Source: Sphaerodactylus townsendi (Eukaryota). Taken from it: DNA of 64,000 bases. The stretch covers positions 88,722,001 to 88,786,000 of the forward strand of contig NC_059434.1 of NCBI RefSeq assembly GCF_021028975.2. Reading direction: 5' to 3'. The translations under genes and the position numbers were made by a program. Below, piece after piece: positions 15,480-55,692 of this stretch. The first letter of the stretch is position 1, and the number at the start of each line of letters is the position of its first letter. The notes under the pieces are model-generated. The model had not been told where the DNA came from. It searched no databases and saw nothing but the letters and a program-made list of their open reading frames with translations.

Positions 15480-17265
<1,786 letters not shown>

Positions 17266-18912: not shown

Positions 18913-21900
18913 CTAGTATTTCTCAGACATCATCAGCACCACCAGGGCAGACCAGCCTGTGAACGGGTGGCTCCCCTGCCCCTTGCCCGTGCCGTCGTGG
19001 TACTGCTCCCAGAGGTAGCCACTTTCCTGGTACTGCTGAAAGACGTTGCCCACGAGGTTGGCTCGCAGCTCCTGGTAGAGGGAGGCGGCCTCCTGGCGGA
19101 AGGGCCCCTCCTGGCGGCCGTAGTGGTGCAGCGCCCGCACAGCCAGGTAGTTGATGTTGATCCAGATGGCCCCCCGCCAGTAAGGGGGGTCGTGCTCTGT
19201 GTTGTACTTGAGGTAGAGGGGGCTGCTGCGCGAGAGGGAGCGCAGGCCAAAGGGCGTCCATAGCTGCTTCTCGCTGCGCATGTCTGCCAGGAGGGTGCCC
19301 AGGTGTGGCGAATCAGGCCGCAGCAGCTGCAGCAGCAGTGGGAAAAGGCTCACGTAGCCGAGGGCGCCCCCTACAAACTGCAGCCTGGGGGGCTTGCGGA
19401 CCACCCGCAGAAGCCTGGGGGGCGGGAGGGGCTGGCCCGGAGAAGGGGGCCGGGGCTTCTCCCACTCTAAAGCCACTGCCTGGGTGTGGTTGCCGTAGTC
19501 CGCGAAAGTGCTCAGCGCCTTGGCCCAGTGGTGCTGCTCCAGCAGCTGGTTGTCGGCCAGAAGCTTTGCCATGTGCTGGTAATCCCCCGCTGGCTCTCCC
19601 AGATGCACGGCCACCTGCGCCATGACGTCCGAGGCGAGGGCCATCCAGCAGCGAAGGTCCAGGTGGCGCTCCTCCGGCGACGGGTGCGAGGCCCGTGGAT
19701 AGTCATCCAGTCCTGAGGTCAGAGTCTTTGGGTTGAGAAACATCTGCGTGTCCTGGTCGCGTCCATGCCACCGGAAGGTGTAGGGGACCGGTCCAGCTTG
19801 CGTGCGATTGTACCAGTCGTACCAGCTCTGTAAGCGAGGGAAGAGGCTCCGCAGGTAGGGCGCGTCGACCGCGCCCTGCGCGAGGAGCTGCTGCAGCAGC
19901 AAGAAGAACGTGGGGGGGTTCCCTGCACTGCTGTGCTGCACCACGAACTCCGCAGGCACCTTCGTGCGGGCCTCTTCGCCTAGGATCTGCTCTCGAGGAA
20001 TCCAGCCCTCGGCGTTCATGAGGTCGAACCAATGGGCCAGCACCTCGCAGCTCAGGGCGGGATCCCAGCGGCTCAGCAGCAGCTGGTGGAAGCCTTCATC
20101 CCACAGGAAGCCCCGTGGGAAGAAGGAGCGCGACGGCACTGCAGTGAAGAGCGGGCCCTCGGGGTAGGGCTGCGGGAGCTCGCTGTGGGGGGACTGCACC
20201 AGGGAGCGCCCATAGAAGTAGCCCATCCCGCCCAGCATGTTGCTGAAGGCCGCCTTGGCAAAGTCCTGCTCCTGTGCAGAGAAGCCCTTGCGGGCCAGCC
20301 CAAACGCCTCCTCAAAGCGCTGGTCGAAAGCGGCCACGTGGCTGGCCAGCTCTTGCGTCAGCACCTCCCCCACCAGCCGCTCGGCACGATCGGACACGCT
20401 GCCCGACTCAAAGGCCATCTCTAGCCGGCAGGGCAGGGCCACGGTCACCTGGTGGACCACCAGCTGGCTCTGGCGCTCCCTCCCGTCGGGCGGCCCCTGG
20501 TAGGTGTCCACACCAGCATAGCGGCGCTTGGGGCCCCCTGGTGGCGCATACACAAAACGGGGGCTGAGGCTGGCCTTGACCACGTCGCTCAAGCGGTGCA
20601 GGCCCTCAGCCCGAGCGTGGAGGTAGTTGTAGCTGGAGACAGGGAGAGAAGAGCCCCGGTGAGAACGCAGGCAGCCCGTGGCCCCTCTTGCCCACCTCTG
20701 TGCTGGCCCAAGGACTGGCAGGCGGCACAATACCTGGCATAGAGAGGCCCTGTGCCAGCCTCGCTGGTGGGCTGCAGGAAGGTGATGGTGAAGTCCCCCA
20801 GCTCTTCGGTTGTGCCGGTCAGGGAGGCCAGGCGGTTCTTCTCCACCACCAGGGGCCGGAGGATCCCTTGCCCGTCGGTTGCCACATAGAAGAGCAAGGA
20901 AATGAAGGCGGGTGGGGGCCCAGCACTCCTCTGTAGGCAGAAAAAAAAAGGGGGGGCATCAGGTACTCACTACTCCCAGCCAAGGTCGTGCCCAGCGGCC
21001 TCTCTTGTGCCTGAAGACCACCCTTTGAGGAAGAACTGTGGGCCCAGCCCAGGCTTGTGAGTCCCCAAAAGCCACCGGCACGTTTGTGGGCAGGCCCCCT
21101 TTCTCGGCCTGGGGGTGAGTGAGGGCCTTTGCTCCCCTGACGCTCAAGAGCCAGAAGGGAGGGAGGCCTCCTTGCCAGCTGAAGCGCCTGCCCCATAGGA
21201 CACCCCCCCCCCCCGCCAACTCGGAACCTGGAAGAGGAAGCACCCAGCCCTTATCGCCAACACAAGCGACATGTAGCCGGGAGGTTCTGGAAGCTAAATT
21301 TAGGCTGCTAGGAAACAGGTTGAAGTCCAGGACCTCCAAGGTGGCATTCTCAGAAATGCTACCCGTTCCACGCGCAGGGCGAGCTAGGCAAGCGGATATA
21401 CAGGGTCTCAATGCGTGGATGAGAAGGTGGTGTAAGGCAGAGGGTTTCAGATTTGTCAGGAACTGGGGAACCTTTTGGGACAAGGCAGGCCTGTACAAAC
21501 GGGACGGGCTTCATCTTAACCAAAGAGGAACCAGGCTACTGGCGCTCAACATTAAAAAGGTGGCAGAACAGCTTTTAAACTGATCACTGGGGGAAAGCCG
21601 ACAGGAGCTGAGGTGACTTCGGTTCGGAATACAGTATCTATGGGGATGCAGACAGAGAGGGAGGTTTTTCTAAATCAACCACATACAAGCCAGAAACATA
21701 GCAATGTGCATGTGACAAGGGATAGTGTCTACAAAAGACTTGAGGGTAAAGCACATAAATCCCAGGTTAAGGACAGAGACAGGGTATACAGGTGTCTCTA
21801 TGCTAACAGTAGAAGCATTCGACCTAAAATGGGGGAGCTAGAGTACAGAGTTTTGAAGGAGGACTTTGATATAGTGGGCATTACAGAGACATGGTGGAAT

Positions 21901-24900
21901 GAGGAGAACCAGTGGGATGCTGTTATACCAGGCTACAGGCTCTATAGGAAGGATAGGATAGGGCGCATTGGGGTGGAGTTGCCCTTTACATCAAAGAGAG
22001 CATAGTATCACATAAAATAGACAATGCAAGGGGAGCTGGTTCCCCTACAGAATCACTGTGGATATCAATACCAGGTGTGAAGGACAGTTTAATATTAGGA
22101 ATATATTATCGTCCCCCTGACCAAAGTGCACAAGAGGATTCTGAGATGGAAAAAGAAATTAGAGAGGCCAACAAAAACAAAAATGTAGTGGTAATGGGTG
22201 ATTTTAACTATCCCCATATAAACTGGAAAAATGCATGTTCAGGTCATAGTAAGGAGAGAGCATTCCTGGATATGCTAAATGACTGTGGCTTAGAGCAGAT
22301 GGTTGTGGAACCAAGGGGAGAGGTGATCCTAGATCTAATTCTATGTGGGACCCAGGACCTGGTGCAGGAAGTCAGTGTTGTTGAGCCGATAGGGAACAGC
22401 GACCACAATGCTTTCAGATTCAGTATCTCAGCATGCGAACAAGTGGCAACTACTAATGTAGTTACATTCGCCTTCAGAAAGGGAAATTTCTCAAAGATGA
22501 GGGGGATAGTGCGCAGGAAGCTGAAAGGGAAAATCAAGAGAGTCAAAACTGTCCAGGATGCTTGGAGGTTATTTAAAAACACAGTAATAAAAGCTCAGCT
22601 GGAATGTGTTCCACAGGTTAGAAAAGGCAGCACCCAGTCCAAAAGAAAGCCACCATGGTTAACAAGAGAGGTTGAGGAAATTATCAGAAAAAAGAAAATG
22701 TCTTTTAGAAAATGGAAGTCCAACTTAACTGATGAAGAATACCAGAGAGAACACAAATGGTGGCAAAAGAGAAGCAAGTTAGCTGTAAGGGAGGCAAAAA
22801 AGGATTATAAGGAACGCATGGCTGCGAACATCAAGACCAGCAACAAACAGTTCTTCAAGTACATCAAAAGCAGGAAGCCAGCAAGGGAAGCGGTAGGCCC
22901 GTTAGATGACAAAGGAACAAAGGGTGTGCTAAAAGATGGCAGGGAGATTGCAGAGAAGCTGAATGAATTCTTTGCATCTGTCTTCACCCAAGAGGAGGTG
23001 AGGAACATTCCTGCACCTGAACCAAGCTTCTTAGGAGGCGAATCCGAGGAACTAGCGAAGATAGTGGTAGACAAGGAAGAAGTTCTGGCAGCCATTGATA
23101 AACTAAATGTTACCAAATCCCCTGGCCCAGATTGCATTCACCCAAGAGTTCTTAAAGAGCTCAAGCATGAAATTGCTGATCTTCTCACTTTAATATGCAA
23201 CTTATCCCTGAATCAGGCTCCATCCCTGAAGACTGGAAGATGGCCAATGTCACACCAATCTTTAAGAAAGGATCTAGGGGGGACCCGGGAAATTACAGGC
23301 CAGTCAGTTTGACATCTGTTCCTGGTAAATTAGTAGAATCTATCATTAAAGATAAAATTATAAAACATGTAGAAAAGCAAGACCTGCTGAGAAAGAGTCA
23401 GCATGGGTTTTGCAGAGGCAAATCCTGTCTTACAAACTTACTAGAGTTCTTTGAGGGTGTAAACAGGCATGTGGACAGGGGTGAACCGGTGGACATTGTC
23501 TACTTGGATTTCCAAAAGGCTTTTGACAAAGTTCCTCACCAGAGACTGTTGAGAAAACTCAGCAATGAAGGAATAAGAGGGGAAGTCCTCCTATGGATTA
23601 AAAACTGGTTGAGAAACAGGAAACAAAGAGTGGGTGTAAATGGGAAGTTCTCACAATGGAGAGATGTCGGGAGTGGTGTCACCCAAGGATCCGTTTTGGG
23701 ACCAGTGCTCTTTAACCTATTCATAAATGACCTGGAAGTAGGGGTGGGTAGCGTGGTGGCCAAGTTTGCAGATGATACCAAATTATGTAGGGTGGTGATA
23801 ACCACAAAGGATTGCGAAGAGCTCCAAGCGGACCTTGATAAAGTAGGGGAGTGGGCTAAGAAATCGCATATGCAGTTCCATGTAGCCAAATGTAAAGTGA
23901 TGCACATAGGGCAAAAAATCCAAACTTCACATACACGCTTACAGGGGTCAGTGCTATCACCACAGACCAGGAAAGGGATTTGGGCGCCTTAGCTGATAGT
24001 TCCATGGGAATGTCAACTCAATGCACGGCAGCTGTGAAAAGGCAAACTCTATGCTGGGGATCATTAGGAAAGGAATTGAGAATAAAACTGCAAAGATTGT
24101 CATGCCCTTATATAAAGCAGGCGACCGCGACTTGGAGTACTGTGTCCAGTTCTGGTCGCCGCGATCTCAAAAAAAGGATATTGAGGAGATAGAAAAGTGC
24201 AGAGAAGGGCAACAAGGATGATTGAGGGACTGGAGCACCTTTCCCATGAGGAGAGGCTGCAGCGTTTGGGACTCTTTAGTTTGGAGAGGAGGCGGCTAAG
24301 GGGGGATATGATTGAAGTCTATAAAATTATGCATGGGGTAGAAAATGTTGACAGAGAGAAATTTTTCTCTCTTTCTCACAATACTAGAACCAGGGGCATT
24401 CATTGAAAATGCTGGGGGGAAGAATTAGGACTAATAAAAGGAAACACTTCTTCACGCAACGTGTGATTGGTGTTTGGAATATGCTGCCACAGGAGGTGGT
24501 GATGGCCACTAACCTGGATAGCTTTAAAAGGGGCTTGGACAGATTGATGGAGGAGAAGTCGATTTATGGCTACCAATCTTGATCCTCTTTGATCTGAGAT
24601 TGCAAATGCCTTAACAGTCCAGGTGCTCGGGAGCAACAGCCGCAGAAGGCCATTGCTTTCACATCCTACATGTGAGCTCCCAAAGGCACCTGGTGGGCCA
24701 CTGCGAGTAGCAGAGAGCTGGACTAGATGGACTTTGGTCTGATCCAGCTGGCTTGTTCTTATGTTCTTATGACAGATCAACTCCTGCCATCTCAGCCTGC
24801 TGCCCTCTCTAATTCCCCCTCGCCGGGGTCCCTGTGGCTGCCCCGCCCCAGCCCCGCACCTCCGGGCGCGCCGTGACCCTCCAGCTCCAGTCGCCGCCGT

Positions 24901-25509
24901 GCAGGCCGCCGGGCCGCTTGACGAACTCGGTGCGCAGGCGGAGGCCCCGGTCGCGGATCTCCTGCAGGCCGAAGGTGAGGCCGTCGTGGCGCAGCCAGCC
25001 GTAGCCGGCCAGGCGGTCGCTTTGCTCGCACGTGTGGCGCAGCGGCGGCGGCGGCGCCTCCCCCTCCGACGGCAGCAGCCACATCAGCCCTGTGCGGGAG
25101 ACACGAAGGAGCGCAGCGGTGAGAACCGCAGGGGCGGGCGGGGGGGCTCCTCCCTGGCTCCCTTCCTCCGGCGGCGGGGCTGCTGACCTGTCACCGGGGC
25201 GCGCGGGCTGCGCGTCTTCATGCCCAGGTAGACGTGAGGCCGGTAGGAGCCCCAGAAGAGGCCGGGGGCGGCGGCGGCACTGCTGCCGTTTGCGGGCAGG
25301 AGGCGGGCGGCCGGGTGCGGCGTCACGGCCAAGCCCCCGCGCGCCCGCCACAGCCCCCACGCTGCCGCCGCCGCCACCACGCACGCCACGCCCAGCACCG
25401 CCGCCGCCGCCCCCTGCCCCGACCGGCCCCTCCTTGCCGCCGCCCCCCGCGGGCCTCTGTCGTGCGGCCGGGGCCCCTCGGGCACTCTCCGCCGTCGCTC
25501 CCGGGCCAT
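18913..25509 (-). CDS. MOGS: Mannosyl-oligosaccharide glucosidase (ER glucosidase I, GH63), ~822 aa
   Basis: Exons 25509-25188, 25089-24860, 20930-20734, 20632-18913 join in frame. [71 protein letters not shown] (-) at 18808-18813. Confidence 0.98.
21271..24771 (+). mobile_element. Near full-length young CR1 LINE in MOGS intron 2, antisense to MOGS
   Basis: ORF1 SGNH-esterase C-terminus ([15 protein letters not shown]); ORF2 APE endonuclease ([19 protein letters not shown]) and RT ([21 protein letters not shown]) split by a few frameshifts; TTCTTATG tail. Confidence 0.96.
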
Positions 25510-25559
25510 CCCGGCTGCGGCTTCTCCCGCGGAAGGAAGAGGAACCCGCCGCCCCGCCT

Positions 25560-25680: not shown

Positions 25681-27773
25681 GACGTTTCCTCCAGACGGGA
25701 GCCCCTCCCTCCCTCCCGCATTCGGTGTGTGGGGGAGGGGAGAGGTCTGCAGTCGCCGCCCCCGATGGCTCTTCAGCCGCGAAGCCAAGAACACGCCGGC
25801 GCAGAGGCCGCCCCGGGGGTGGGGGGTGGGGGGATCGCCTCGCTCGGTTGGCAGCCCGGCTGCGGCCAAGACAGAGGGGGCTTCTCGGGAGTGCGGAGCG
25901 AAAGGCTGCCCCCACCCCCAGGCAACCGGAAAGCACTCCGCGCCTGGGCAGCAGTGCGGGGAGGCGATGCCACTCTGCCCACGTGCCCCGCCCGCTGCTG
26001 ACCCCCAAACCGATGGGAGGGGGGGGAGTCCCGGAAGCAGCTCCTGGGCAGCCTTCAGTCCGCTGGCCCTTCACACCCCCCCGCCCCGCCCTCCTTTTCA
26101 GTGGCCTTGCCAGACGTCAAAGGGGCTGGATTCCCCACCCCAGGCAGGAGGCCGTCTAGAAAGCGGGGGAAGGGAAGTGAGCACCCCAGGGACTGGCGGT
26201 CCAACTGCGCACAGGGCTGCCGGAGGGAGACTTCAGACCACGCCATGCGCTGCCAGCCACAGGAAATGCTCCTTTGCTCCCGGAGGCGTCCACGGCCAGA
26301 GGTTGTTGCGGAAATCCTGGGCACTCGCAGCTTCCAAGGGGGCTAGCCAGAATCAGGGAGGAGAGGAAGCAGGGAAGGGAACCTCCACCTTCAAAGGCAG
26401 TCTACCAGTGCCAGGAGGAGGCTTTAGCCTCTTATGCCTCAGTCTCTGTCCTCCAGAAGACCCCCTGTGACACAGGATGATGGGCCCTCCCTGGCCTGAT
26501 CCCACAGGGCTCTTTTGTCCTGGATTTCTCCCTGCCCTGTGACAGTGTTCTCAGGAGGCCACCCCAGAGGTGCACGAGCATCACTGGCTCGCCCACCCAC
26601 TCGCAGGTCCTGGGGTCAGCCCTGGCCACTGCCTCTCAAAGGGTGGTGGGGCGGGGGAGACAGGACCCCTGCGACGTTCCTGCTCTGCTCTCCCATGACC
26701 CCTCAGCAGCCCCCAGAGGAGCGCCAGGCTTTGTCGGTGGGAAAAGCTCCGGGGGTCCAGAGGGGGCCTTCTTCATAACGTGCCTCCCAAAAGTTCTGAC
26801 AGTCCCCCTTTTTGTACCATGTGTGTGTGTGGGGGGTGCAGAAGCAGGGGCTGGAATGCTGCTTGGACAGACCCCATTTTTTGGGGGGCCACATAGTCCC
26901 TCATGGTCTCTGGCTTCCACATCTGACCGTCTGCAAAGGGCTGCTGTCATCCAAGATCAGTTGGCCCAGGAGGAAAGCCAGCATTTGCTGTCAGGGAACT
27001 CCGGGCTTCTTGGGGCCCTGGGCTCACCTGGCTCAGCCAACCCCCACCCCGCTGACCTAACACATGGCAACCGACAGCCACACAACAAAGAGTTTGAAAT
27101 GGGTGGGGTGTGTGTGTGAAAAGACAAAGCGAGAGTCACCACATCCTTTGGATATATCTTTTATTGCTGCTGGCGCCTCACCCCCTGTGCCTGGCCTGAG
27201 CCCCCCCCCCCCCCCCGCCAGAGCTGGCTCCCCCCCCCCCACACACACCCTGAGCCGAAGGCCCTGAAATATGCCCAACCCCACAAGGAAGAACATTCAT
27301 GTGCACTCCCCTCTCCTGGCAGTTTTTGCGAGCCAAAGGACAGCCCCAGGACTCCCGCCCTTCCCAGGTGATTGTGCGCGGGGGGTGTGGGGGTGTGGCA
27401 GAGTGGGGCCAGGATTGACCCCTGCTTGGGTCAGCTCAAAGACAAAGGTCTGGAAGACACCCCGGCCTGGGAGCAAAGGGGGGGGGCAAGTGACTGGTGT
27501 GGGGGAGGGGGTTTCTGAATGGCCCAGGGCCAGGACCCACTCCAGCTCTGGCTCCGGCCTGCTTGGAGACACAAGGCTCGTTTTCCTTCCTGAGATGTGG
27601 GGCAGGGGGACAAGCCCAGCTAGAAAGCCCCCCCCCCCCACTGCTCTTGTTGCAGGCCACAGGCTTCCTCCCTCCCTCCCAGTTTGGGGACAGGTGGTAG
27701 CTGTTGGCCTGGGGCCAAGCAGGGGATGGTGCTGGTGGGAGAGGGGTCAGAGGTCGGGGTTGCCAGCAACCAA

Positions 27774-30700
27774 TCACTGCTTGATTTGTCCACCGTCTCC
27801 TTCGCTGACGAAGCGCTTCCGTCCCCTAAGGGGGAAAAGGAGCGAAGTTAGGCAGGCCCAGGGAACCCCGACAGCAGAGCGACTTCAGGCACTGCCCCCT
27901 GCCCCCTCCGCCCCCCACAGAGCGCCCCGTCCCTCACGCGCCCCCAGTGCCCTAAACAGATTTACAATTTCTAAACAGGCAGTTCTAATCTATTGGGGGG
28001 GGGGGGGAAGACCCGAAAGTCTGTCCCCCAAGTGCTTGGACGGGCTCAGGACCCTCCTGGCCGGAGCCCCACGCCCTCCGCTGCCCGCCACTCTCCAAGG
28101 GGAGGGTAAGAGAGGCAACAGGGCGTACCGGGCAGGGCAGGCGTCCCTCAGCTGCTTGGTGATGACCCCCTCCTCAAAGCACAGGTCCACCAGGCGCTCC
28201 AGGATGCTGTGGGCCAGAGGGACGTCCAGGCTGATGTCTCCAAGTTCGCCATACACCCGCTGGAAGCCCTGCCGGAGGGGAGGGGAGGGGAGGGGAGGGA
28301 GCAGCGGTCAGCAGAGCCAGGAAGGGCTGCCCAAGACTGGGGCCGTCGGCTAGGAGGCAGGCCCCGCCCACAGGCCTCCACCGCAGGTCTCTCCTGTTGC
28401 GCTGGGACCTGCCTCGTGGGCTCCCTCGGCCGTAGCCTTTTGCCATCAGGCGTGTGTGTGGTCTGCTGCAGCAGCAGCCGCCGCCGCCCCCAGAGCTCCT
28501 ACCCTGTTCATCTGGTCCAGGGTCACCAGCCCCGTCTCCCAGAGCACCTTCAAGAGCTTCATCATCATGGCCACGGCCGTCTCGCCCGAGGACTCCAGCA
28601 CCATCACCACAGCCTGGCAGAGAAGCAGAGCCGGGAAGGGCTGTCAGCCATGGAGGCTGCTCCGCTGCAAGGCACAGCCGTGTGGGGCAAAGTGCTTGGG
28701 CTAGCGACCCCCGCCCGTCCTGTTGCCCGGCCAGGTGCCTGCGTACCTCATAGATGAGCTCGTGGTGGAAGTGGGGCACCTCAAGCTGGCGCAGGCAATG
28801 CTCAGCCTCTGACATGTCTCCTGAAAGCAGGTACTCCTGGAGCAGCAGGTTCATCTGCAGGTTGGGGAAGACAGCAGAGCTGAGCTGCCTCGAGAAGGGA
28901 ACATTCGGACAGGCAGAATGACAGAAATCCTGACACTTACTAAAGCTGGCAGTGCCTGGGACCCCAGATGACCCTCCAGCCCAGGTATTCAGGTCCGTCC
29001 CACCTGGCAGCCTTAATCCCTTTTGGACAAAAGACGAGCCGGTTTAGACCAGGCCCGACGCCTGGCCTGGAAGTTCAGATCGACCACCAGGCGGCCGACA
29101 CGGGCGGGATCCGGCTCGGACGCATGAAGGTGGACTTGACTGGGATGGGAGAAATCCGCTCGGTGGCTCAGGTCCCACTCCAGCCAGCACAAACATCTGG
29201 ACATTTGGGGTTTCCCCTTGTCTTCACTTTTCAGTCTTCCGTGGGAATAGGGCCGTGGGACGTTGGGTGGGGGGTTAAGGGCCCCTCCCCCTTCTTCAGG
29301 CTCCAAGGAACTGGCTACAGCTGAGTCACGTGGTGAGCTGGGTGAGTGCGCCTGTCTTGCTTTTCACTGGCGTCTCTGCGTTGCTGCTGCTGCTGGGGGC
29401 TTTTCTCGGCCTTTGTGATCTGCCCCTCCCTGCCGAATCCAACCACCCTCTCCTTTCTGATCTTCTCTTTTTTCACATTTAAGCTTTTTTAAAAGAAAAA
29501 ACCTACGTTTTGCTTCACTGAGTACATTGGGTGTCTCTGGAGCATTTCTCTTGATCTCTTTCCCATGTGACAGACGGCACAGCGGCCACTCGCTCGGTGT
29601 CATTTAGTTATTGCTCTAGCAATATTGCACTTGCATGGAGCCATCCCAGCAGGTCAGTCTAGGCCCGAGGGGCAGTGGCTCAGAGGATGCTTCGTGGGGC
29701 TGCGCAAGGCCAGGAGGGGCTGCTCAGTTTTCACTGGGGGACGTCACTTTGGGCCCCTGGAGCATTTTCTGGGCAGAGTGACGAGAGAGGCACTTTGGCC
29801 ACCTTTCTCTTGCTGAGCTCTGGGATTCGCAGTTGAGGCCTACCTGCAGCAGCATCCTGACTCGCTTCCAAACCCTGCTCAGACAGAGAGCCTCTCAACC
29901 CCCCCCCCCCACACTCCCAGGACAGAGGGCAGAGCCTCCTCAAGCATGCCCCCCAGCGGCCCCGTACCCCTCTCACCTCCTTAATCAGGTGCCTGACAGG
30001 TCTCTGGCCGCCCCCCACCCCCCACACGTTGTCCAAGCGGTTGACGTCTCGCTTGATCCGCAAGAGGACAGCAGCGCGATCCAGGGCAGCCCTGGGGGGG
30101 GGGGGGGGGGAGGAGGAAGGAAGGCCTTCAGAAGGGAGCTGAGGACGGCCGGGGGGGGGGGGACCCAGCCCACAGACTCTCCCGGGCCAGCTGGGTGGTC
30201 AGCCTAGGAGTTCGTGCCGCCCCCCTGCCTGCCTGGCCCCCACGACGGTCAGCAAGGCCAGCGCTCAGGCTGGCTCCCTCACCGAGCATGTTCACAGTCG
30301 ACACGCCCCTTGTAGCGTTCGAGGAAGTCGAGAGGCAGGGCGTGGTCGGCCACAGCCCGAGCGATGAACTGGCCCAGCATCTGCACAGACAGACGGACGG
30401 GGGTCAAAGGCTACGCGTCCACCCAGCTCCCTGCCCCCCCCCCGCATTCTCCTGGGCCACATCCTGACCTGGGGGGCCTCCGGCGTGTCCAGAATCAGAT
30501 CAGGGAGGTCCTGCAGCATGCCATCGAAGGCGGCGGCCACGTCCTCGGCGCTGAGCAGCTTCCCCACCAGGTCAGACAGCAGGCGCGACGTCAGCTCCCT
30601 GTGGCTGGCCTTCCCCTCCAGAGACAGCGCCACGGCCAGGGAGGGCACCGCTGCTTTGTGGCCCCCCAAGTTCAGGCCCCGGAGCAGCTCCTGCCAGACA

Positions 30701-32795
30701 CAAGACATTGGCCAAGGTCAGCAAGTGCCCCTGGACAGAGGGGTTCTTGGCCCCCCATGTCTGCTCCTTCCCAGCCGGGGGTCCCAGGGGAGCTTTCCAC
30801 TGACAGGGCAGCGTGGGGGGTTTGCCGCCCCCCAATATGGTACACCTGCCCCCCTCCCCCCCACTCTGCAAGTCTAAGTCAGCCCCTTCTGCTGTGCCAC
30901 AGACTCATGAAGGGGAGCACCGGCCCTTTCCCTGTCCTGCTAAGTGCTGGGAAATGCCTAAAGCCCGTGGGGTGAGATCTCGATGCCCTGACATGGGTCT
31001 GAGCCCCCACCAAGGTAGCTTGCCCGGTTAACCAGCCCTGCCAGCTAATGCCTGCCAGGAGCAGGACCAGGCTGTTGAGTAGCCCCCACCCCGGTGGGCT
31101 TCTGCACCAGGGGGCCGATCCTGGGGGTGTCTCTTATGATACCTGCAGGAATCTCTTATTTATGTAGTTCAGTTATTTTCACCCTGCCTACCTAAGGCAC
31201 GTGGCCAAAAGGGCAAGTTGCACGCCCCTCCCCACCACCAATCAGCCAGTATCTTTGCTCATTAATAAGCAACCCCCCCCCCCAAAAAAAAAACACAAAC
31301 AAACCTGGCCTCAAGCAAAGCCCACTCTTGGGTCAACGGAGTTCCCTGAGCAACTAAGAACGGCACCTTCTCTGCTGAGACAGCTGGCACCCAGGTCTCC
31401 TGAGCAGAGCAGATGCCGTCGTCAGAGGGAGCCGGCTGGGCCCCTCCTCTTGAGAGCCCCCCCTTGGGCAACCTCTGGGGAAGCCTGGCTGGAACCGGCC
31501 TGAGAATGGCTGCAGGAGGCAGCCCCCCCAGCCCCCGCCCCAGGAATCACTAGCAGCAGCAGCTGCTGAGCCCACCTGCCCCCCACCCAAAGGTCGCCAT
31601 TTTGCAGGAGACGCTGCGGTCCCCGATGCCCCCCCCCCCCACTCACCACAACCTCCAGGGGGTCTCCGTGCTCAAAGTACTCCAGCACCATGGGCTGCAC
31701 GTTCTTCTTCAGGTCCTCCTCTTCCAGCTCAGGCTCCACTGTGGCATACACGGTGTCGCCCTAAGGAGTGGGGGCAGAAGGCACTTGGGGGGAGGTTCTC
31801 TCCCCCCCCCCCCCCCCCGCCAGACCCTGTGCAGCACAAGCAGGAAGGGGGCATCCACAAGGCCGGGGCTGAGGCCTGCCGCCAGGGGTCGAAGACGGAC
31901 CACCCCGTCCCAGCTGCAGGCCAAGCGTCCTGGGGAGCGAAGGGTCCCGCCTCTTCGGCCTCCACTGGCCCCCTCCCCATTCTCTCTGCGCGCCGGGTCT
32001 TCAGCCTGGGCGCCCTCACCCAAGCCCCCCCCCCAAGCTGAGGACGGCCGGGGGGGGGGAACCAGCCCACAGACTCCTGCCCGCCCCCCCCCCCCAGACG
32101 CGCACCTGCGCCGCCTCGTCGTAGTTGGGGTCCCGCGCGTCGGGCTCCTGGTAGGCGTAGACCACTCCGGGCGCCCCCCAGACGCCTTTGCCGCCGGCGC
32201 CACCTGGGGAGAGGGGGGCACGTGTGGGTGGGTGGGGTCGGCGGGGGGGCTTCGTTGGGTTTGGGGTGGGTTGGAGGCGGTACCTTTCTTGGGCAGGCCG
32301 CGGCCTTTGCCCGCGCGGGAGCGGCGGTCGTGGCCCTTGCCCGGGGGGGGCGGGCTGCTGGGGTCGGGGCCGGGCTGGGCTCCCTCCGGGAGGACCTCGC
32401 GGGCCGCGGCGTCGCGGGAGGAGGTGCGTCGGAGGCGGCGCTTGGCCTTGGCCTTCAGGCGCGCCTCGTGCAGGGCCTTCTCCGGGGGGCTCCAGGCCCG
32501 GCCCCCCTCGCCGCCGCCGCCGCCGCCGTCCATCGGCTCCTCCTCGGCCAGCTCGTCACTCTCGCCGGCGGCCTGCGGGGGGCGGGCAGTAACGCTTAGT
32601 TCTCGCCGCGGCCCGAACTCCCCTCCCCCCACCCCCGGGGGGCGCTCTGCACATGCCCCGAGGCGGCACGCGGAGGACGGCCCAGGCCCGAGGCGGCGGC
32701 GGCGGCGGCGGCGCACAAAGACTTGCCGGCGGGAAGGGGCGGCGGGGGCCGCGCGGCAGCTCGGCGGAGCCTGCCGGGAGGGTCGAGGCGGACAT
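27774..32795 (-). CDS. Programmed cell death protein 4-like paralog (two MA3 domains), ~471 aa
   Basis: Exons 32795-32727 (putative, GC donor), 32572-32284, 32203-32106, 31760-31647, 30690-30469, 30380-30283, 30091-29977, 28854-28747, 28613-28503, 28268-28129, 27825-27774 join in frame. [68 protein letters not shown] (-) at 27160-27165. Confidence 0.95.
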
Positions 32796-33591
32796 GAGGA
32801 GCGCGGAGCAGGCGGCTGGGGCGCCCCGTCCAGCCTGCTGGGCCTGGCGGAGGAAGTGAGCTCAGGGGGCGGGGGCGGGGGCGGGGGCGGGGGCGGTGGC
32901 GGCGGGGCCGGGCGAGGCGTGCCGGGACTCGTAGTCTCCGCCGGTCTTGTCGCCTGCACGCCGAGAGCCCGCCCGCCCGCCCGCCCGCCCAGCCGCACCA
33001 CGGCCCCGTGAGGTGGGCTGCCTTGGCCGGCGGGGAACGGCGCGGGCGGGCGGGGGCGGTTTCCATCTGGGGGACTTCCTGCCCAGCGCGGCGCCTTCGC
33101 TTCCCCGGCCGGCCTCTGGTGCCCCGACTCGCCTGAGCCGTCCACGCCGGCCGAGTTGCCTGAGACTGCCCCCCCGGCCCCCCCCCCTTTTAGGGTCGTG
33201 TCCGTCGGGGGTCTGCAATCGCTACGCGCAATCAGACCCCCTCCCACGGGACGCCGAGTGTGCGCCCCCTGCCTCCTGGACCCCGGCGCCCTGGACGTGA
33301 AGGACTCTTTTCGGGGGTGGGGGGAGCTCTTCTCGGTCACTTTGGGCCCAGTAAGGGGGGGGGGGGGCTATTGGCCTGCTGCTTTAGAGGGCGAGCAGGC
33401 GGGCTGCGCTTCGGGAAACGTCAGCCTGAGATTTCGGCAGGAGAGTGGAGGCGGGGGGGGGGGCCGGGGGGGTCCATCCAGAGCCTCGAAGCAGAGTCGG
33501 CGCTCGTGCCGCGGGAAGGATCGGCCGGCTGCCCAGGCGGGAGTCTGCAGGCAGGATGGAGCGGATGGCCGTAGGAAGGCAGGCCCGTAGT

Positions 33592-33685
33592 CACCGGTGT
33601 CAAACTTGCGGCCCTCCATGATGCTGGCAGGGGATGATGGGAACTGTAGTCCATAACATCTGGAGGGCCGCGAGTTTGACACCTA
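33592..33685. mobile_element. Internally deleted hAT MITE
   Basis: ggtgtcaaact...agtttgacacct termini, same family as 8974-9108. Confidence 0.8.
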
Positions 33686-35434: not shown

Positions 35435-38400
35435 TCAGGGCTCTGCCGCTCTGCACATGCAGGGCAGGCCAGGCACTTTCCAGCGTCGGCCCCCGTGCAG
35501 CCGCAGCGCCAGCCATTCCTGCTGGTGGGGGCTGAGGTAGGTCTCCGGGCTGCAGCCGAGCAGGTCCCCCGGCTGGCTCTCCCCGGCAGCCCTGGAATGG
35601 GCAGGCAGCCCTTCCAAGCTCTCCAGACTGTTGAGGCTGCTGGGGACGCCGTCCTGCATGCGAGTGCCGTTGTAGGCGCCTAGGGGCAGAGACAGAAGTC
35701 AGCAGAAGGAGATGCGACAGGTGCTGCGAGGGCACACAAGAGCAGCAGAGCAGTGAGGTCGCTGCAGCTGCTGGGACCCAGGCCTTTCACCGAATCTCCT
35801 GCTCTGGGGCTGGCTGGGAAAGTTCTTCCACCTGCTCCAGGTGTGAGGTTGGGTGAATTCCGGGCCCCCTTTCATCCCCCCCCCCCCCCGGGGGGGGGGG
35901 CTTCCGCCCCTCCCAGCTCCCCGAGGCTGAGTCTGCCGCCGCCCGGCACCCTAAGAGAGCTGGAGCCCCCCTGGAGCCCTGCGGGGCACTCACAGCACTG
36001 GTGGAGGGCGTCCCAGGTCTGGCAGGGCAGGGAGGCCTTGCCGGGCTGCTGCAGGAGGCAGGTGACGGCGTTGTCCACCTGCTGGAAGACGCGGAGGGAG
36101 AGCAGCCGCTGCCTGGTCTCTGCAGGGAGCCCGGCCTCCTCGGACTGCAGCAGCTCCCTCACCAGCTCAAAGTCCTGCTTCAACTGAAGGGCGCCCTGCA
36201 GGCTGGGGAAAGAGGGCGGCCGGCCCCTTCAGCTGGTCCTGGCCGGAGACGCCGCCCCCCCCCCCACCAGGTAGCTGCGAAGCGGAGCAGCCGAGCCTCA
36301 CCTGAACCTGACCTTCTGAGTCAGGATGTGGTCCAGCCAGGCTTCCAGGAAGGCGGTGGTGACCTGGCTGAGGGTCGGCTCCTGGACCTCGCGGGGCAGC
36401 GGCTGGAGGCCCTGCAGGACTTGGCCCAGGACAGCCTGGGTGGCCGCGGAGGCGTACTCGCTGGGGGAGCAAGGCACGTCTGCGGGGGCAAGCAGCGCAG
36501 CTGGCACTCGGGGAGCCCAGGGGGAGGGGCGCCCACCAAGCCCTCGCCCCCCCGCACCAACCCCTGCGGCAAGAGTACCTGCTTGGCGGGCGAGGCGCCA
36601 GTGCTTGCCCAGGGGCATGGTTTGCCCAAAGATCTCCCCTGCCATGCGCCTGCACTCCGAGGAGAACAGCCTCAGGGCGTCCTGGGCGAAATCCTGGGGG
36701 AGCACGAGGGGCGTGAGTCTGGGGTCCCAGGCGGAGAATCCCAAAGGCACCATTGCCCAGGCACCCACTCTCCTGAACAGGCCAAGCCCCGAAGGCCCCC
36801 CTTCCCCGCAATATCAACCACGTGCCTCTCCTCCTCCCCCCCCACAACTCCAGGCTGAAAGGGTCAGGGAGAGGAAGGAGGCCAAGACAGGAAGAGCCGT
36901 GCGGAGGGCAGCCCATCCACCCCCTGCCCCATTCAGCCCCCTGCCGCTTGAGGGGCTGGCAGAAGTGCAGGCCAGGGCCTGGGCCTCCCCCCTGCCCCGC
37001 CCAGAGGGCTCACCTGTAGGCTGGCTGCCATAGAGTCGACCTGCTGGCACAGCTCTTGCTCCTGCTGGGAGACGAGGGGACCACCCTTCCCTTCCTCCCG
37101 GGAAGGGTCTGCGGTCGCCAGAGCCGCTAGCCTGCTCGCCTGTGTCTTCAGCAGCTGAGAAGAAGAGCAGGGGTCTCCTTAGGGGGTTGCCCCCCCCCCC
37201 CCCCCCCGGCCTGGACGAGGCTCGTGCCTGGGGCCACCGGCAAGGGAATATCCGATGGGGGTGAGGCTGCCTCCCCACCCTCTCCTCCCGTCAGGTCAGC
37301 GATGGGACCAAGGGGGTGGCGGCCATTCCACTTGCCTGCAAGTCTCCTTGGGTGACGAGCAGAAACGGGCTGAGGGAGCCGGCCGCCAAGTGCTGGGAGG
37401 CTTTGCCCAGGGCCCAGTAGCAGGAGGCCTGGCTGGCAGCGGCGGACAGGGACAGCAGGACCAAGCGGCAGCCTGCGGGCCCGAGGAGGCAGTGGCCGGC
37501 TGCAAGGGAGGAGACGCACCCGTCAGGGGCTGCTCGGCGGAGGGGCTGCAGCCGAGCAAGTGGGGGCTGGGAGACACTCACCGGTGCTCAGCGGGGACCA
37601 GGCATCCCAGCACTGCAGGGAGAAGGCCAAGGGCAAGGAAAGGCTGTGGAGCAGCTGAGCTGTGCGGCTGCACGACGCCTCCGTGGCCCGGGGTGGCACG
37701 GCCACACATTTATCAGTCAGGCTGGAGCCCAGCGCCCGGCAGAAGTCTGGTCCGGAGGAGAAGAATGTCTGGTGAGTTCCCTGCACGGGACTTCCCATGG
37801 GCTGCGTGCCAGGCCCACGGCTGGGCCTCCTCCTGCGCTGACCACACTGCCCCCCAGGCCAGAGCAGGCTCCCCCCCTCACCCGGTGGGCCCTTGGCTGG
37901 CCAGCACTGCAAGGGTCCAGCTGGGATCCGCTCTGACCTTGGTCCCAGTGCCTGAGGACTTCACGCAGCAGCAGCCGTAGAAACAGGCCCCTCAGCTCTT
38001 CCGTGCTCTCTCGGGGGACGCAGGCTGGAAGCAGAGGGGGGGGGGGGGAGAGAGCGCGCAGCGTCAGCCAGCCTCCAGCAGGGTTGTTGTCCGGGCCTCC
38101 AGGGCAGGAAGGTCTCCGCCTGCCTTTCCTGAAGGGTCGGTCCTTTCGAGCCTCCCCTCATCACCAGAGAGCCAACTCTCCTGCACAAGGATCCCACCCA
38201 CAGCCCACCAGAGGCCCAAGGGGTCTGTCGGCCACCCCAGAAAGGCCTTTGGACTCAGTTAACCCATTACTGGCCCTTTTCCTGGGGTCTGGCTGCAACC
38301 CTTTAGCACGGCTGCCCTCTGAAACGCCACGCTTGCAGTTGTGACTCTGCACTGTGCACCTGCAGACTGGGACCCTTGCAGAGTGTTCCTTGCTCTGCTA

Positions 38401-40418
38401 CTTTTGGGGGGGGGGTTGGGCGGGGGTGGATGCAGAATGGCCCGGCACGGGGGGGGGGGGGGCAGGAAAAGAAGAGGCAGAAAGGCCCAGAACCCCCCCT
38501 CCCCAGGCCCTCCTGGAGTCACTCCAGCCGGCCTCTGCAGCCAAGAGAGCCCTCGCTTGCTGTGAGAAATGGAAGCAAAGGTGCCCCAAATCCCACAGCA
38601 CCTGCCACACGTCTGGATGGGCACGGGAGTCTCACAGGGCCAGACGCCACCAGCACCCCTCATGCCTACCGTGGAACGGGGCGTGGCCAAGTTGCTGGCC
38701 CAGCGTGGCCACTGTCCTTCCCTGGAACTGTGCCATGGGCAAACGGACCTCCAGCTGGTGGGCTAGGGCAACGGCAGTGGCACTCCAGAGGAGGGGGCAG
38801 CATTGCGCGTACAGCCCCCCAGCAGCCTCCGAGTAGGAAGCGTCCAGCCAGTGCACGGTCTTCCAAGCAGGCAGGGAAGCGGAGTCAGACCCCCCCGGCC
38901 CATGAGACTCCTCCAGGCCCCCGGGGGGCCTTTCCTGGTTGGGCCTACGGAGGAGGTGGTGCCACAGGCTGCCAGTGGAGGCCACCAACTTCCCCAGGAT
39001 CCACAGCAGGTGCTCTTCCTCTACGTGGCACAGGGCTTGCAACTCTGCAGAGAGGCTGGGGGCGCCCTCGCCAGCCTGCGGGGCCGCTGCCAGGAGCCCT
39101 GGCTCAAGAAAGCCCTCCCAAGACGTCGCCGCTTCCCCGCTTCTGGCCCGCGCCTGCAGCCCGAGGAGCAGCTGGCAGAGCTTGCGGGCCGCCCGCTGGC
39201 CTCTCTCTGCCGCCAAGATGCCCAGAACTCTGTCCACGGGGAAGGCAGAGGCTCCTCTGGGCTCTCTTCGCAGACCTGAGCTGCATCCTGGCTCCGCCCA
39301 CAGTGGCTGCCGTGGCTGGTCTCTCAACACCTGGTTGTAGATTTCCAGCCCCTGGAAGAAATCGGAGAGCGGTGCCGCGGACAGGCAGGTGGTGTGAGCC
39401 AGGTGGCGCAGCAGGGCCTCTAGGCAGCGCTCTGAAAGGCAGAGGGCCTGCAGGGCCAGCAGAGAGAGGGCCTGCTTCATGCGCAGCACCACCTCGTGCC
39501 TCAGGAGAAGCAAGGGCCGCAGCCAAGGGTCACTGCGCATGTGCCGCTGCAGTGCATCCCAGTGAGCGGTGTGGGTGCGCAGCTGTTCACACAGTCCCCG
39601 CAGCAGCCGCCCCGAGTCGGCCTCCTGCCTACCGCTGGGCAGAAGCAGAGAACGCTCCGCAGTCCTCAGGCGGCGCACAAAGTCCGAGGCGGCCTTGAGT
39701 CGCCGGCTGTAGTGGCGGGCCAGGCGCAAGTTGTGGTGCTGCTGCAGCAGAGCATGCATGGTGGCACACCGGCGGGCTGCGCCGCTCCACACCGCGTGGT
39801 ACGAGAAGGCCGCCTGGGGCAGCTCTGGGCGCACATGGCCCTGGAACGTCTCGGTCCGCAGATCCTCTCGCACGCAAAGGCTGCGGCTGAGCCCCAGGAA
39901 GCTGCGTTCCACCTGGGCCAGGTGGGCCACGCCTCCTGTCGTCTCCTCCTCCTCGTCACTGTCTTCAGGGTCTTCGGTGGGACGCAGCGGCAGCAGGCGC
40001 CTCCAGTTGGGGTGAATGCAGTGGCGCAGCAGAGCTTCAGCGGTCTGCAAGGATTTCGCCAAAGTCGTCCGGGAGCTGGACCCTGCAGGGAGGCAGAAAG
40101 GGGGGGGGTTGGGGGGGACTCTGAGTCCCTTGTGCCGGCAGCTGCTCCCTGCCCTGGCTTTGGCGCACCTGGGGAAACATGGGAACTGCAGCCCCTGCCC
40201 CCTCAGGTCCGTTTCCCCAAATGGAAAGCAGACGGACCCTCCTCCTTTCCTTTGGGTGGGGAAGCAGGAATAATCCATGGCAGCCCCCCCCCCCCCCATG
40301 CGAGAAGCCCCTTACCTGGCTCGGCCTCCTCTCCCCAAGCCGGCGCCACCTTCCTGGGCCCTGCCAGCGCGCTGAGGGGTGGCAGAAGGGTATCCGCAGC
40401 TGGTGACTTGCGTGCCAT
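35435..40418 (-). CDS. CCDC142: Coiled-coil domain-containing protein 142, ~939 aa
   Basis: Exons 40418-40316, 40082-38670, 38024-37938, 37746-37582, 37499-37336 (GC donor), 37154-37014, 36693-36579, 36479-36302, 36202-35994, 35679-35435 join in frame. MPLGKHWR, PSEYA, AWLDHIL..RFSLQGALQLKQDF, QQEWLALR. Synteny; AATAAA (-) at 34904-34909. Confidence 0.92.
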
Positions 40419-44917: not shown

Positions 44918-52979
<8,062 letters not shown>

Positions 52980-54569: not shown

Positions 54570-55692
54570 GAGATTCAATGGCCTCCCTGTGCAGTCTCAT
54601 AGTATCCTTATGAATTGTCCAGAATTTCAGTGCTTTCAAATAAAATGTTATGTCCAGTTTTGTTTAAGACATGTTCTGCTACTGCAGATTTTTCAGGATG
54701 GTTAAGCCGACTGTCTTTCGTGCTCCATAATACGAGTCTGAATGCTGCGTTTTGTGGTTCCTATGTAGTCCTTTCCACAGCTGCAGGGTATGCAATAGAC
54801 TCCTTCAGAAGTGAGTGGGTCTCTCTTGTCCTTTGCTGAGTGTAGCATCTGCTGTATTTTCTTGGTAGGTTTGAAGATGGTTTGTAGGTAATGCTTTTTC
54901 ATCAGTTTCCTTATTTGATCTGTGATTCCCTTGATGTATGGTAGAAATATTTTCCCCATGGTGGGCTGTTTCTCCTCAGTCCTTTGGGTTTCTCTTGGTC
55001 TTCAAGCTCGTCTGATTTCTGTTGTGAAGTAGCCATTAGCCTGTAGAGCCCAGTCTAGGTGATTTCATCAGGGAGGAGGTGAGGTTCACGAATTCATTTT
55101 GCACAATCTGTCAGAGTTTTGATTATACCACTTTTCTGTTGTGGATGGTGGTTGGAGTTTTTATGTAGATGTAGGTCTACGTGGGTTGGTTTTCTGTATA
55201 CTGTGTGGCCCAGTTGATTGTTGGGTCTGCGAAAGAGACTCTGAGAATTAACAAAGCTTGGCTACCAGTACTTAAAAACACCAGAAGCAAAGGTCAAGGG
55301 CCTGCTAAGTTCATGGACCATGGACTCCATGCAAACACAGGATTTGCATTCACCAATGCTGCTGGTGGTGGTGCAGGGAATGCAAATGTGAATTACTCCC
55401 TGGACTGAAAAACCCCACCTGCAATACTGTACTATCAACCACACCTTTGCATAGCAAGTTCCACCCAAACACTTACTGACTGGTTCCCCACCCAGGGACA
55501 TGACAATTTATACCCCACAAAAACATTCCCTTCTCACTGGACACAGTGTGTAACAGACTTTCCCCTGTGATACACCTCTGAAGATGCCAGCCACAGATGC
55601 AGGTGAAATGTCAGGAACGAGATCCACCAGACCACGGCCACACACCCTGGAAAACCCACCACAACCAGTTGAATACGGCCGTGAAAGCCTTC
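54570..55692. mobile_element. Penelope-like retroelement (GIY-YIG) with 5' inversion and hammerhead-bearing 3' pseudo-LTR
   Basis: Minus strand 54570-55228: FLPYIKG..GVYCIPCSCGKDYIGTTKRSIQTRIMEH. Plus strand from ~55230: KETLRINKAWLPVLKN, then CTGAAGA..GAAATGTC at 55578-55612. Confidence 0.88.

Follow-up and report, generated by a model that had tools for sequence, protein, structure and literature searches.

An intact pdcd4a-type paralog of PDCD4 beside MOGS in the gecko Sphaerodactylus townsendi

Human PDCD4 (10q25), the counterpart of fish pdcd4b, inhibits translation initiation by acting on eIF4A and on the 40S ribosomal subunit (PDB 8XXL-8XXN and 9BKD; PMC11217289). Its residues 100-145, with R102, R103, R110 and W124, plug the 40S entry channel, residues 148-159 contact eIF3G, and both MA3 domains hold eIF4A (PMC11217289); E249 and D253 form the main eIF4A patch, according to the accessible part of PMC3089569. 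The available text of PMC6539695 describes how human PDCD4 is destroyed via the motif D70-SGRGD-S76 after S6K1 has marked S67, a fate prevented by S71A or S76A. A second type of PDCD4 gene is named pdcd4a in fish and "programmed cell death protein 4-like" in NCBI records of reptiles, birds and amphibians. The gene described here is of this second type. It lies in a 64,000-nucleotide stretch of the gecko Sphaerodactylus townsendi (hereafter the window; G000:C10:88722001-88786000, G000 being the assembly and C10 the window contig, while C8 and C9 are other contigs of the same assembly).

The window gene falls in the same clade as fish pdcd4a and the "PDCD4-like" proteins, with which it is 71-88% identical and has in common a basic helix, a ribosome-binding region, tandem MA3 domains and the lack of a DSG degron. 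It differs from fish pdcd4a in that the gecko protein has neither degron serine and its transcript no miR-21 seed match, whereas zebrafish pdcd4a is miR-21-responsive. Identity with human PDCD4 is 59%. The window gene has the contact residues of the latter as well as its two RxRxxS sites, and introns 2-10 show the phases seen in the gecko's own canonical copy on C8; unlike human PDCD4, the gene is a paralog with no DSGxxxS motif, no miR-21 site and a diverged eIF3G-contact strand. The "elusive" reptile genes, as presented in the accessible part of PMC5901865, offer another comparison: the window gene is likewise an old duplicate, apparently missing in mammals, in a GC-rich and gene-dense region. 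That class, however, demands absence in birds also, and birds have the ortholog of the window gene, as the many bird rows among the matches listed attest.

Taken together, the data are best explained, with considerable confidence, by an intact and spliced ortholog of pdcd4a that separated from canonical PDCD4 before the sharks branched off, likely through whole-genome duplication, that was likely lost in mammals, and that is a predicted translation repressor likely escaping the beta-TrCP switch. It represents no new mechanism or family; it is a real, well-supported ancient paralog, whose ortholog is already known to databases as pdcd4a or "PDCD4-like". What is added is a correction of orthology, a likely mammal-specific loss, an asymmetry of the degron and a possible exchange with MRPL53. 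No account of the PDCD4 pair, of its mammalian loss or of the degron difference was found in the full-text literature, subscription journals and some supplements lying outside that scope. PDCD4 is not mentioned by name in the accessible text and supplement of PMC2446394, in 19 supplements of PMC5901865, in the main text of PMC3296468 or in one supplement of PMC13450315; the pair may be listed in the supplements to PMC3296468 or in the ohnolog database on which PMC13450315 draws, and lists made of identifiers only would also escape a search by name. PMC3850090, in its accessible part, covers plant PDCD4 only.

Clade, gene model and splicing

Phylogenies were computed with FastTree on 96 rows and with IQ-TREE (LG+G4 site model) on 41 chosen rows. 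Both recover two clades, clade A with the window gene (support 100/96 in the 41-row IQ-TREE tree) and clade B with the C8 gene (100/99). A branch that sets clade A apart from all other rows recurs in 100% of 200 bootstrap trees, and the clade follows the order of the species tree and includes fish pdcd4a; the window gene lies outside the canonical clade and does not group with mammalian PDCD4. Sharks are found in both clades, and crinoid, Daphnia and mite sequences outside both. Because each clade contains sharks, the split is older than the divergence of sharks and bony vertebrates wherever the root falls; the outgroup branches are long, as a tool warning indicated, and so is the root. Identities agree: the window protein is 75% identical to gar 4a vs 60% to gar 4b, and 72% to the shark clade A protein vs 62% to shark 4b. 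The window gene is thus an ortholog of fish pdcd4a, and not of human PDCD4, in keeping with the resemblance to pdcd4a recorded in the first-pass annotation. The fish ortholog of the human tumour suppressor is accordingly pdcd4b and not pdcd4a. NCBI applies the names 4a and 4b to genes of gar, coelacanth and sharks as well. Tarpon (P0081/P0452) and moray (P0451/P0459) each possess two clade A proteins, probably a true teleost-duplication pair; the tarpon pair is in the tree.

The range of the gene is wide. A window exon (best 120 of 343 matches) retrieves squamates, birds (several rows partial), turtles, alligator, amphibians, lungfish, teleost pdcd4a and sharks, and a full-length turtle ortholog (best 120 of 1382) adds coelacanth, gar, bowfin, reedfish, sturgeon and paddlefish. 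The gene is therefore not reptile-specific: the matches listed span every major jawed-vertebrate lineage except mammals. Its earlier description as retained in reptiles was too narrow, as its presence in birds, amphibians, lungfish, coelacanth, ray-finned fish and sharks shows.

The canonical PDCD4, which the earlier annotation had advised looking for elsewhere in this genome, lies on C8. A search of the assembly with exon 5 gave seven candidates, two of them genuine, the window gene and a locus at C8:56.98 Mb; no third copy carrying exon 5 was found, and the assembly contains other MA3 matches besides. The C8 gene has 11 coding exons, encodes 468 residues and occupies the slot between two open frames recognised as RBM20 and SHOC2, a slot that the window gene does not hold. 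The two gecko proteins are 59% identical (247/417), with a gap-free alignment across both MA3 domains, exons 4-10 of equal length and introns 2-10 of the same phases. GC content at third codon positions (GC3) is 0.87 in the window gene vs 0.35 in the C8 gene, and the coding spans measure 5.0 kb vs 17.4 kb.

The window gene is read from the minus strand, with its ATG at 32795 and its stop at 27774, the limits first given for it. Its 11 coding exons join into 1416 nt, encoding 471 residues followed by TGA, without frameshift or internal stop. A 74-residue exon matches vertebrate PDCD4-family proteins with E values of 1e-26 to 1e-36, far beyond chance, and the Pfam MA3 family (PF02847) is detected on exons at 30469-30690 (E 1.9e-6) and 28747-28854 (E 1.9e-8), and below the cut-off at 28131-28268. 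The ESM Atlas returned the label "PDCD4" and nothing beyond it. The open reading frame, the MA3 matches and the matched neighbours bear out the initial view of an intact 11-exon PDCD4 paralog between MOGS and CCDC142; of the peptides quoted in its support, five were matched by motif search and the DTVYATV stretch falls within the exon model.

Coding exon 1 (32727-32795) is followed by exon 2 (32284-32572), which encodes the basic helix, an S6K/Akt-type site, the degenerate degron and the start of the ribosome-binding region. Exon 3 (32106-32203) carries the second motif (WG) of that region, and exon 4 (31647-31760) the eIF3G-contact strand and the start of MA3 domain 1. Exon 5 (30469-30690) covers MA3 domain 1 with its acidic patch (E249 as D, D253), and is followed by exons 6 (30283-30380) and 7 (29977-30091). 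MA3 domain 2 starts in exon 8 (28747-28854); exons 9 (28503-28613) and 10 (28129-28268, with the D414/D418 patch) lead to exon 11 (27774-27825), which holds the C-terminal RxRxxS site (S457 equivalent) and the stop. The 3' untranslated region (UTR) extends over 27140-27773, with AATAAA at 27165-27160 and contigs of the public run X4 over 27182-27536. The nearest database protein, P0001 from gecko (labelled uncharacterized), is identical from Met37 onward except for 10 added residues at exon 8; this longer exon was set aside, as the X4 joint 28854-29977 favours the shorter acceptor.

Nine of the ten introns are GT-AG. Intron 1 (32573-32726) is in frame only with a GC donor at 32726. A GT donor 4 bases further, at 32722, creates a stop and misfits the end of an X4 contig: its exon 2 portion stops at 32570, where GC-AG predicts the leftmost cut (GT at 32722 would place it at 32571), and 248 letters continue beyond it. 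The joint of exons 1 and 2 is thus inferred to be GC-AG, and the exon 1 peptide resembles the N-termini of other squamate orthologs. Intron 1 of the window gene is likely GC-AG and of phase 0, whereas canonical intron 1 on C8 is GT-AG and of phase 1.

Splicing was assessed in contigs from four public runs of one study (X1-X4), none of them recorded as RNA. X4 contigs join across 8 of the 10 introns at CT..AC ends; these include both joints of exons 3, 4, 6 and 7, the upstream joint of exon 9, and the joint 27824-28128 of exon 11. Since its contigs skip introns, X4 is taken as RNA, which answers the call for an RNA check. With this splicing and the canonical copy on C8, neither of the two conditions named beforehand as refuting a second PDCD4 gene, a mere translocation or a lack of expression, is borne out. 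The joints of introns 1 and 9 (the latter downstream of exon 9) are unlisted because the adjoining stretches were skipped as repeats. Joined contigs have depths of 867-2409, compared with 0-76 over most intron stretches; contig depth is no measure of expression level. X1-X3 show none of X4's joints and cover exons and introns alike. The possibility that the joined contigs stem from a processed pseudogene was rejected, given the lack of joints in X1-X3, the intron depth of X4, far below its exon depth, and the presence of only two loci in the assembly. Within intron 7, the stretch 28946-29790 shows an X4 contig depth of 76 and clustered variants in X1-X3, and is likely repeat or retained intron sequence.

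Predicted repressor function and the degron

Residues are numbered after a 469-residue primate protein standing in for human PDCD4. R102, R103, R110, W124, G125, E210, D253, H358, F359, D414, D418 and P420 are kept in the window protein; the roles of most of these residues are described in PMC11217289 and PMC3089569, and E210, H358, F359 and P420 are further contact residues. E249 is replaced by D, as in 133/134 clade A rows and 8/97 canonical rows, and both acidic eIF4A patches are thereby retained as D/D (249/253 and 414/418). The ribosome-binding region is identical to that of the primate protein at 35 of 46 positions, with its R102, R103, R110 and W124 all among those kept, and the two MA3 domains at 72/122 and 77/124; the fold has been solved at about 60% identity to the window protein. 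Because the contact residues and the ribosome-binding region are kept, the window protein is predicted to inhibit initiation like human PDCD4: by analogy, its ribosome-binding region would very probably plug the 40S entry channel and its tandem MA3 domains would hold eIF4A inactive. Phosphopeptides of carp PDCD4A, reported in the accessible part of PMC11170284, indicate that a clade A ortholog is made as protein.

The two clades differ in the element through which human PDCD4 is turned over. The beta-TrCP degron DSGxxxS, searched as DSGxx(x)S, is present in 96/96 full-length canonical rows vs 0/132 clade A rows (124 without DSG, one with ESG, seven with the region not located); the rows are proteins of 400-520 residues taken from 90% clusters, isoforms included, and do not count as independent events. 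In the window gene, the RxRxxS site and the degron position lie at 32393-32437. The serine equivalent to human S67 is kept, as is that of S457, while human D70-S71-G72-x-x-x-S76 reads D-A-A-x-x-x-V. Among 134 clade A rows this gecko string is present in a single one, the database entry for the gene itself, and no variant was seen in exon 2, which encodes it, in any of the four runs. DSG is also missing at the degron position in 8/8 invertebrate proteins, and for this reason gain in the canonical copy is favoured over loss in the window paralog.

A copy that lacks the degron would not be turned over efficiently by beta-TrCP after S6K/Akt has phosphorylated its S67- and S457-type sites, and the two copies would share the work between a growth-signal-sensitive repressor and a more stable one. 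As read from the protein sequences, such a division of labour is somewhat favoured for the clade as a whole, and a stable repressor is a good deal more probable for this gecko copy, in which both serines are missing. The gecko degron would be a natural counterpart of a stabilising S71A/S76A-type change, and the pair of paralogs, one with an invariant degron and one with none, a natural experiment on the mTORC1-S6K1-beta-TrCP switch. An unlikely but serious alternative holds that a non-canonical degron, D-S-x-R-E-S, places the paralog under the same control as canonical PDCD4, the difference being one of degree: most clade A proteins retain serines of the S67, S71 and S76 type, and beta-TrCP tolerates some variant degrons. 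However, the degron glycine is invariant in 97/97 canonical rows and replaced in clade A, and, among the rows shown, two turtles, two galliforms and two vipers lack the second serine and the gecko lacks both, which looks like relaxed constraint.

A second regulatory difference concerns miR-21. No seed match to it is found in the 634-nt 3' UTR of the window gene, whereas the C8 copy has a miR-21 8mer 239 nt past its stop.

Apparent absence from mammals and origin of the pair

No named mammal is found among the matches listed for either clade A query, and all 27 unnamed rows are closest to non-mammals, whereas the C8 exon (best 120 of 156) retrieves mammals, platypus included, as well as pdcd4b. 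The genes listed for a human 2p13 deletion and those of a cattle list, in the accessible parts of PMC7272322 and PMC8505495, include MOGS, MRPL53 and CCDC142 but no PDCD4. The clade A gene was thus likely lost in mammals, and studies of "PDCD4" in zebrafish, frog, chicken or lizard need to allow for a further gene, probably redundant and seemingly absent from mammals. The position of the window, 0.34 Mb from the end of the 89.1-Mb contig C10, in GC-rich and gene-dense surroundings, would fit the loss-prone regions of this kind described in the available text of PMC5901865.

In the gecko, MRPL53 has three exons, looks intact and lies on a different contig (G000:C9:93938800-93946250, at 93.94 Mb). 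Its presence in the window was excluded: the family search matched C9 alone, and tblastn of the C9 locus against the window gave no real match. The mammalian arrangement MOGS-MRPL53-CCDC142 is therefore not shared by the gecko. MRPL53 may have taken the lost paralog's slot, in which case the locus may record a gene replacement in early mammals, MRPL53 for PDCD4-like. A more far-reaching scenario is doubtful. According to it, once the early vertebrate genome duplication had taken place, the copy retained by mammals alone gained the S6K1-beta-TrCP degron. Its sister remained a stable repressor not removed by growth signals; all other jawed vertebrates retained it, and it was lost in the mammalian stem lineage as MRPL53 entered precisely its slot between MOGS and CCDC142. 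The stable sister could then sustain translational shut-down in fasting, cold or anoxia, and MRPL53 might have taken over the CpG-island promoter of the lost paralog. Survival of the clade A gene in monotremes or marsupials, with its absence confined to placentals, is improbable, as is its concealment by high GC. The GC3 of 0.87, the location 0.37 Mb from the contig end and the several partial bird rows would suit such a survival; yet the canonical PDCD4 of platypus was found, and no mammalian clade A protein stands among listed matches that reach down to teleosts.

As to the origin of the pair, PDCD4 was duplicated before sharks and bony vertebrates diverged. Two of two tested neighbour pairs, WBP1/WBP1L and LBX2/LBX1, link the same contigs, C10 and C8, as the PDCD4 pair, which makes whole-genome duplication the likely origin. 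On C8, PDCD4 lies at 57.0 Mb, WBP1L at 62.1 Mb and LBX1 at 63.3 Mb. According to PMC2446394, the Lbx1 and Lbx2 loci go back to the first round of vertebrate duplication; if PDCD4 travelled with them, the pair would putatively be equally old. The earlier proposal of paralogous regions stands for the WBP1 and LBX pairs, whereas RTKN, also invoked, was not located. The related idea of an ohnolog absent from the human locus agrees with the paired paralogon and with the human and cattle lists, to the extent that these reach. An ancient segmental duplication or transposition onto the block, in place of whole-genome duplication, is very improbable. In its favour, only two neighbour pairs were tested, lying 5-6 Mb from PDCD4 on C8, and the split is undated by jawless-fish sequence; against it stand the pairing of WBP1/WBP1L and LBX2/LBX1 on the same contigs and the Lbx loci described as ohnologs in the available text of PMC2446394. 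Next to no probability attaches to a recent lizard-specific duplicate or to an origin of pdcd4a and pdcd4b in the teleost genome duplication, as their a/b names imply: under LG+G4, the approximately unbiased test rejects both a window+C8 clade (p 7e-31) and a teleost 4a+4b clade (p 3e-64), gar, bowfin, reedfish, coelacanth and sharks carry clade A genes, and two Megalops proteins lie inside clade A, as expected of true teleost duplicates. The same holds for canonical PDCD4 relocated to the window, which the domain layout and intron phases would allow, since the C8 copy beside RBM20 and SHOC2 groups with mammalian PDCD4 and the window gene sits in the other clade.

Several points weigh against an expressed pdcd4a-type repressor that arose by whole-genome duplication, was lost in mammals and escapes beta-TrCP. 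Expression is seen in the contigs of one run of one study, its library not being on record. Binding of the window protein to eIF4A and 40S is a prediction, and its eIF3G-contact strand is identical to that of the primate protein at 5/12 positions vs 11/12 for the C8 copy. Clade A mostly keeps the degron serines (S71 in 117/134 rows, S76 in 106/134), and its members may remain weak beta-TrCP substrates. The missing miR-21 site is not clade-wide, as zebrafish pdcd4a is induced in miR-21 morphants (accessible part of PMC3709480). The tree is without cyclostome, tunicate or amphioxus sequences (no lamprey, hagfish or amphioxus protein was found among 20 representatives looked up by name), so that any round assigned to the duplication, and any direction in which the degron changed, would be tentative. 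Finally, the mammalian absence is drawn from 240 listed matches, as distinct from searches of mammalian genomes, and GC-rich genes such as this one (GC3 0.87) are easily missed in monotreme and marsupial assemblies.

Neighbouring genes and other elements

The order on C10 is WBP1, MOGS, the window paralog, CCDC142, a TPR gene, LBX2 and PCGF1, the last two lying past the window end. WBP1 (matched exons 16142-16722, plus strand; PF11669) is the paralog of WBP1L on C8. MOGS, the downstream neighbour (18916-25557, minus strand, the span of two matched open stretches), is identified by PF03200 (E 2.5e-209) and PF16923, and CCDC142, the upstream neighbour (36301-40311, minus strand, the span of matched stretches), by PF14923 (E 5.7e-31) and a weak PF25081 match. 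The TPR gene that follows, with a weak Pfam match, is likely TTC31; a TPR exon (48407-48640, plus strand) and an RRM-like exon (51910-52113, plus strand) lie at the place expected of TTC31. A Pfam scan of 110 of the 495 open stretches of the window detected no RTKN or INO80B family member. Another strong WBP-1 family match, with one internal stop, lies 14 Mb off (G000:C10:74319216-74319449).

Database models of the alligator, tinamou and godwit orthologs (P0105, P0060 and P0061) are fused or mislabelled with CCDC142, MOGS and LBX2. Alligator isoforms appear as "transcription factor LBX2", the tinamou protein as "mannosyl-oligosaccharide glucosidase", and the godwit model is fused to CCDC142. 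These names hint at the same neighbourhood in birds and alligator, and such models help conceal the ortholog.

The 5' end of the window gene lies in a CpG island (GC 0.79 and CpG observed/expected 0.89 over 32300-33300), which includes the approximate 5' UTR of exon 1 (32796-32975, minus strand), estimated from depth bins and from the 248 letters of the contig that found no place. This UTR holds a ZNF143-like motif starting at 32935, a weak sign as the pattern matches 9 places in the window. Further upstream, an 88-bp element (33596-33683) resembles a miniature inverted-repeat transposable element, with 23-nt inverted ends that are 96% complementary, and many X4 contigs pile up there. An intron of MOGS harbours, in antisense (21119-23989, plus strand), an element of long interspersed nuclear element type, likely CR1, whose frames, shifted relative to one another, encode a GDSL esterase (first open reading frame), an endonuclease and a reverse transcriptase. 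At 54705-55001 (minus strand), GIY-YIG is matched weakly (E 2e-4, slightly short of the cut-off), perhaps by a piece of a Penelope-like element.

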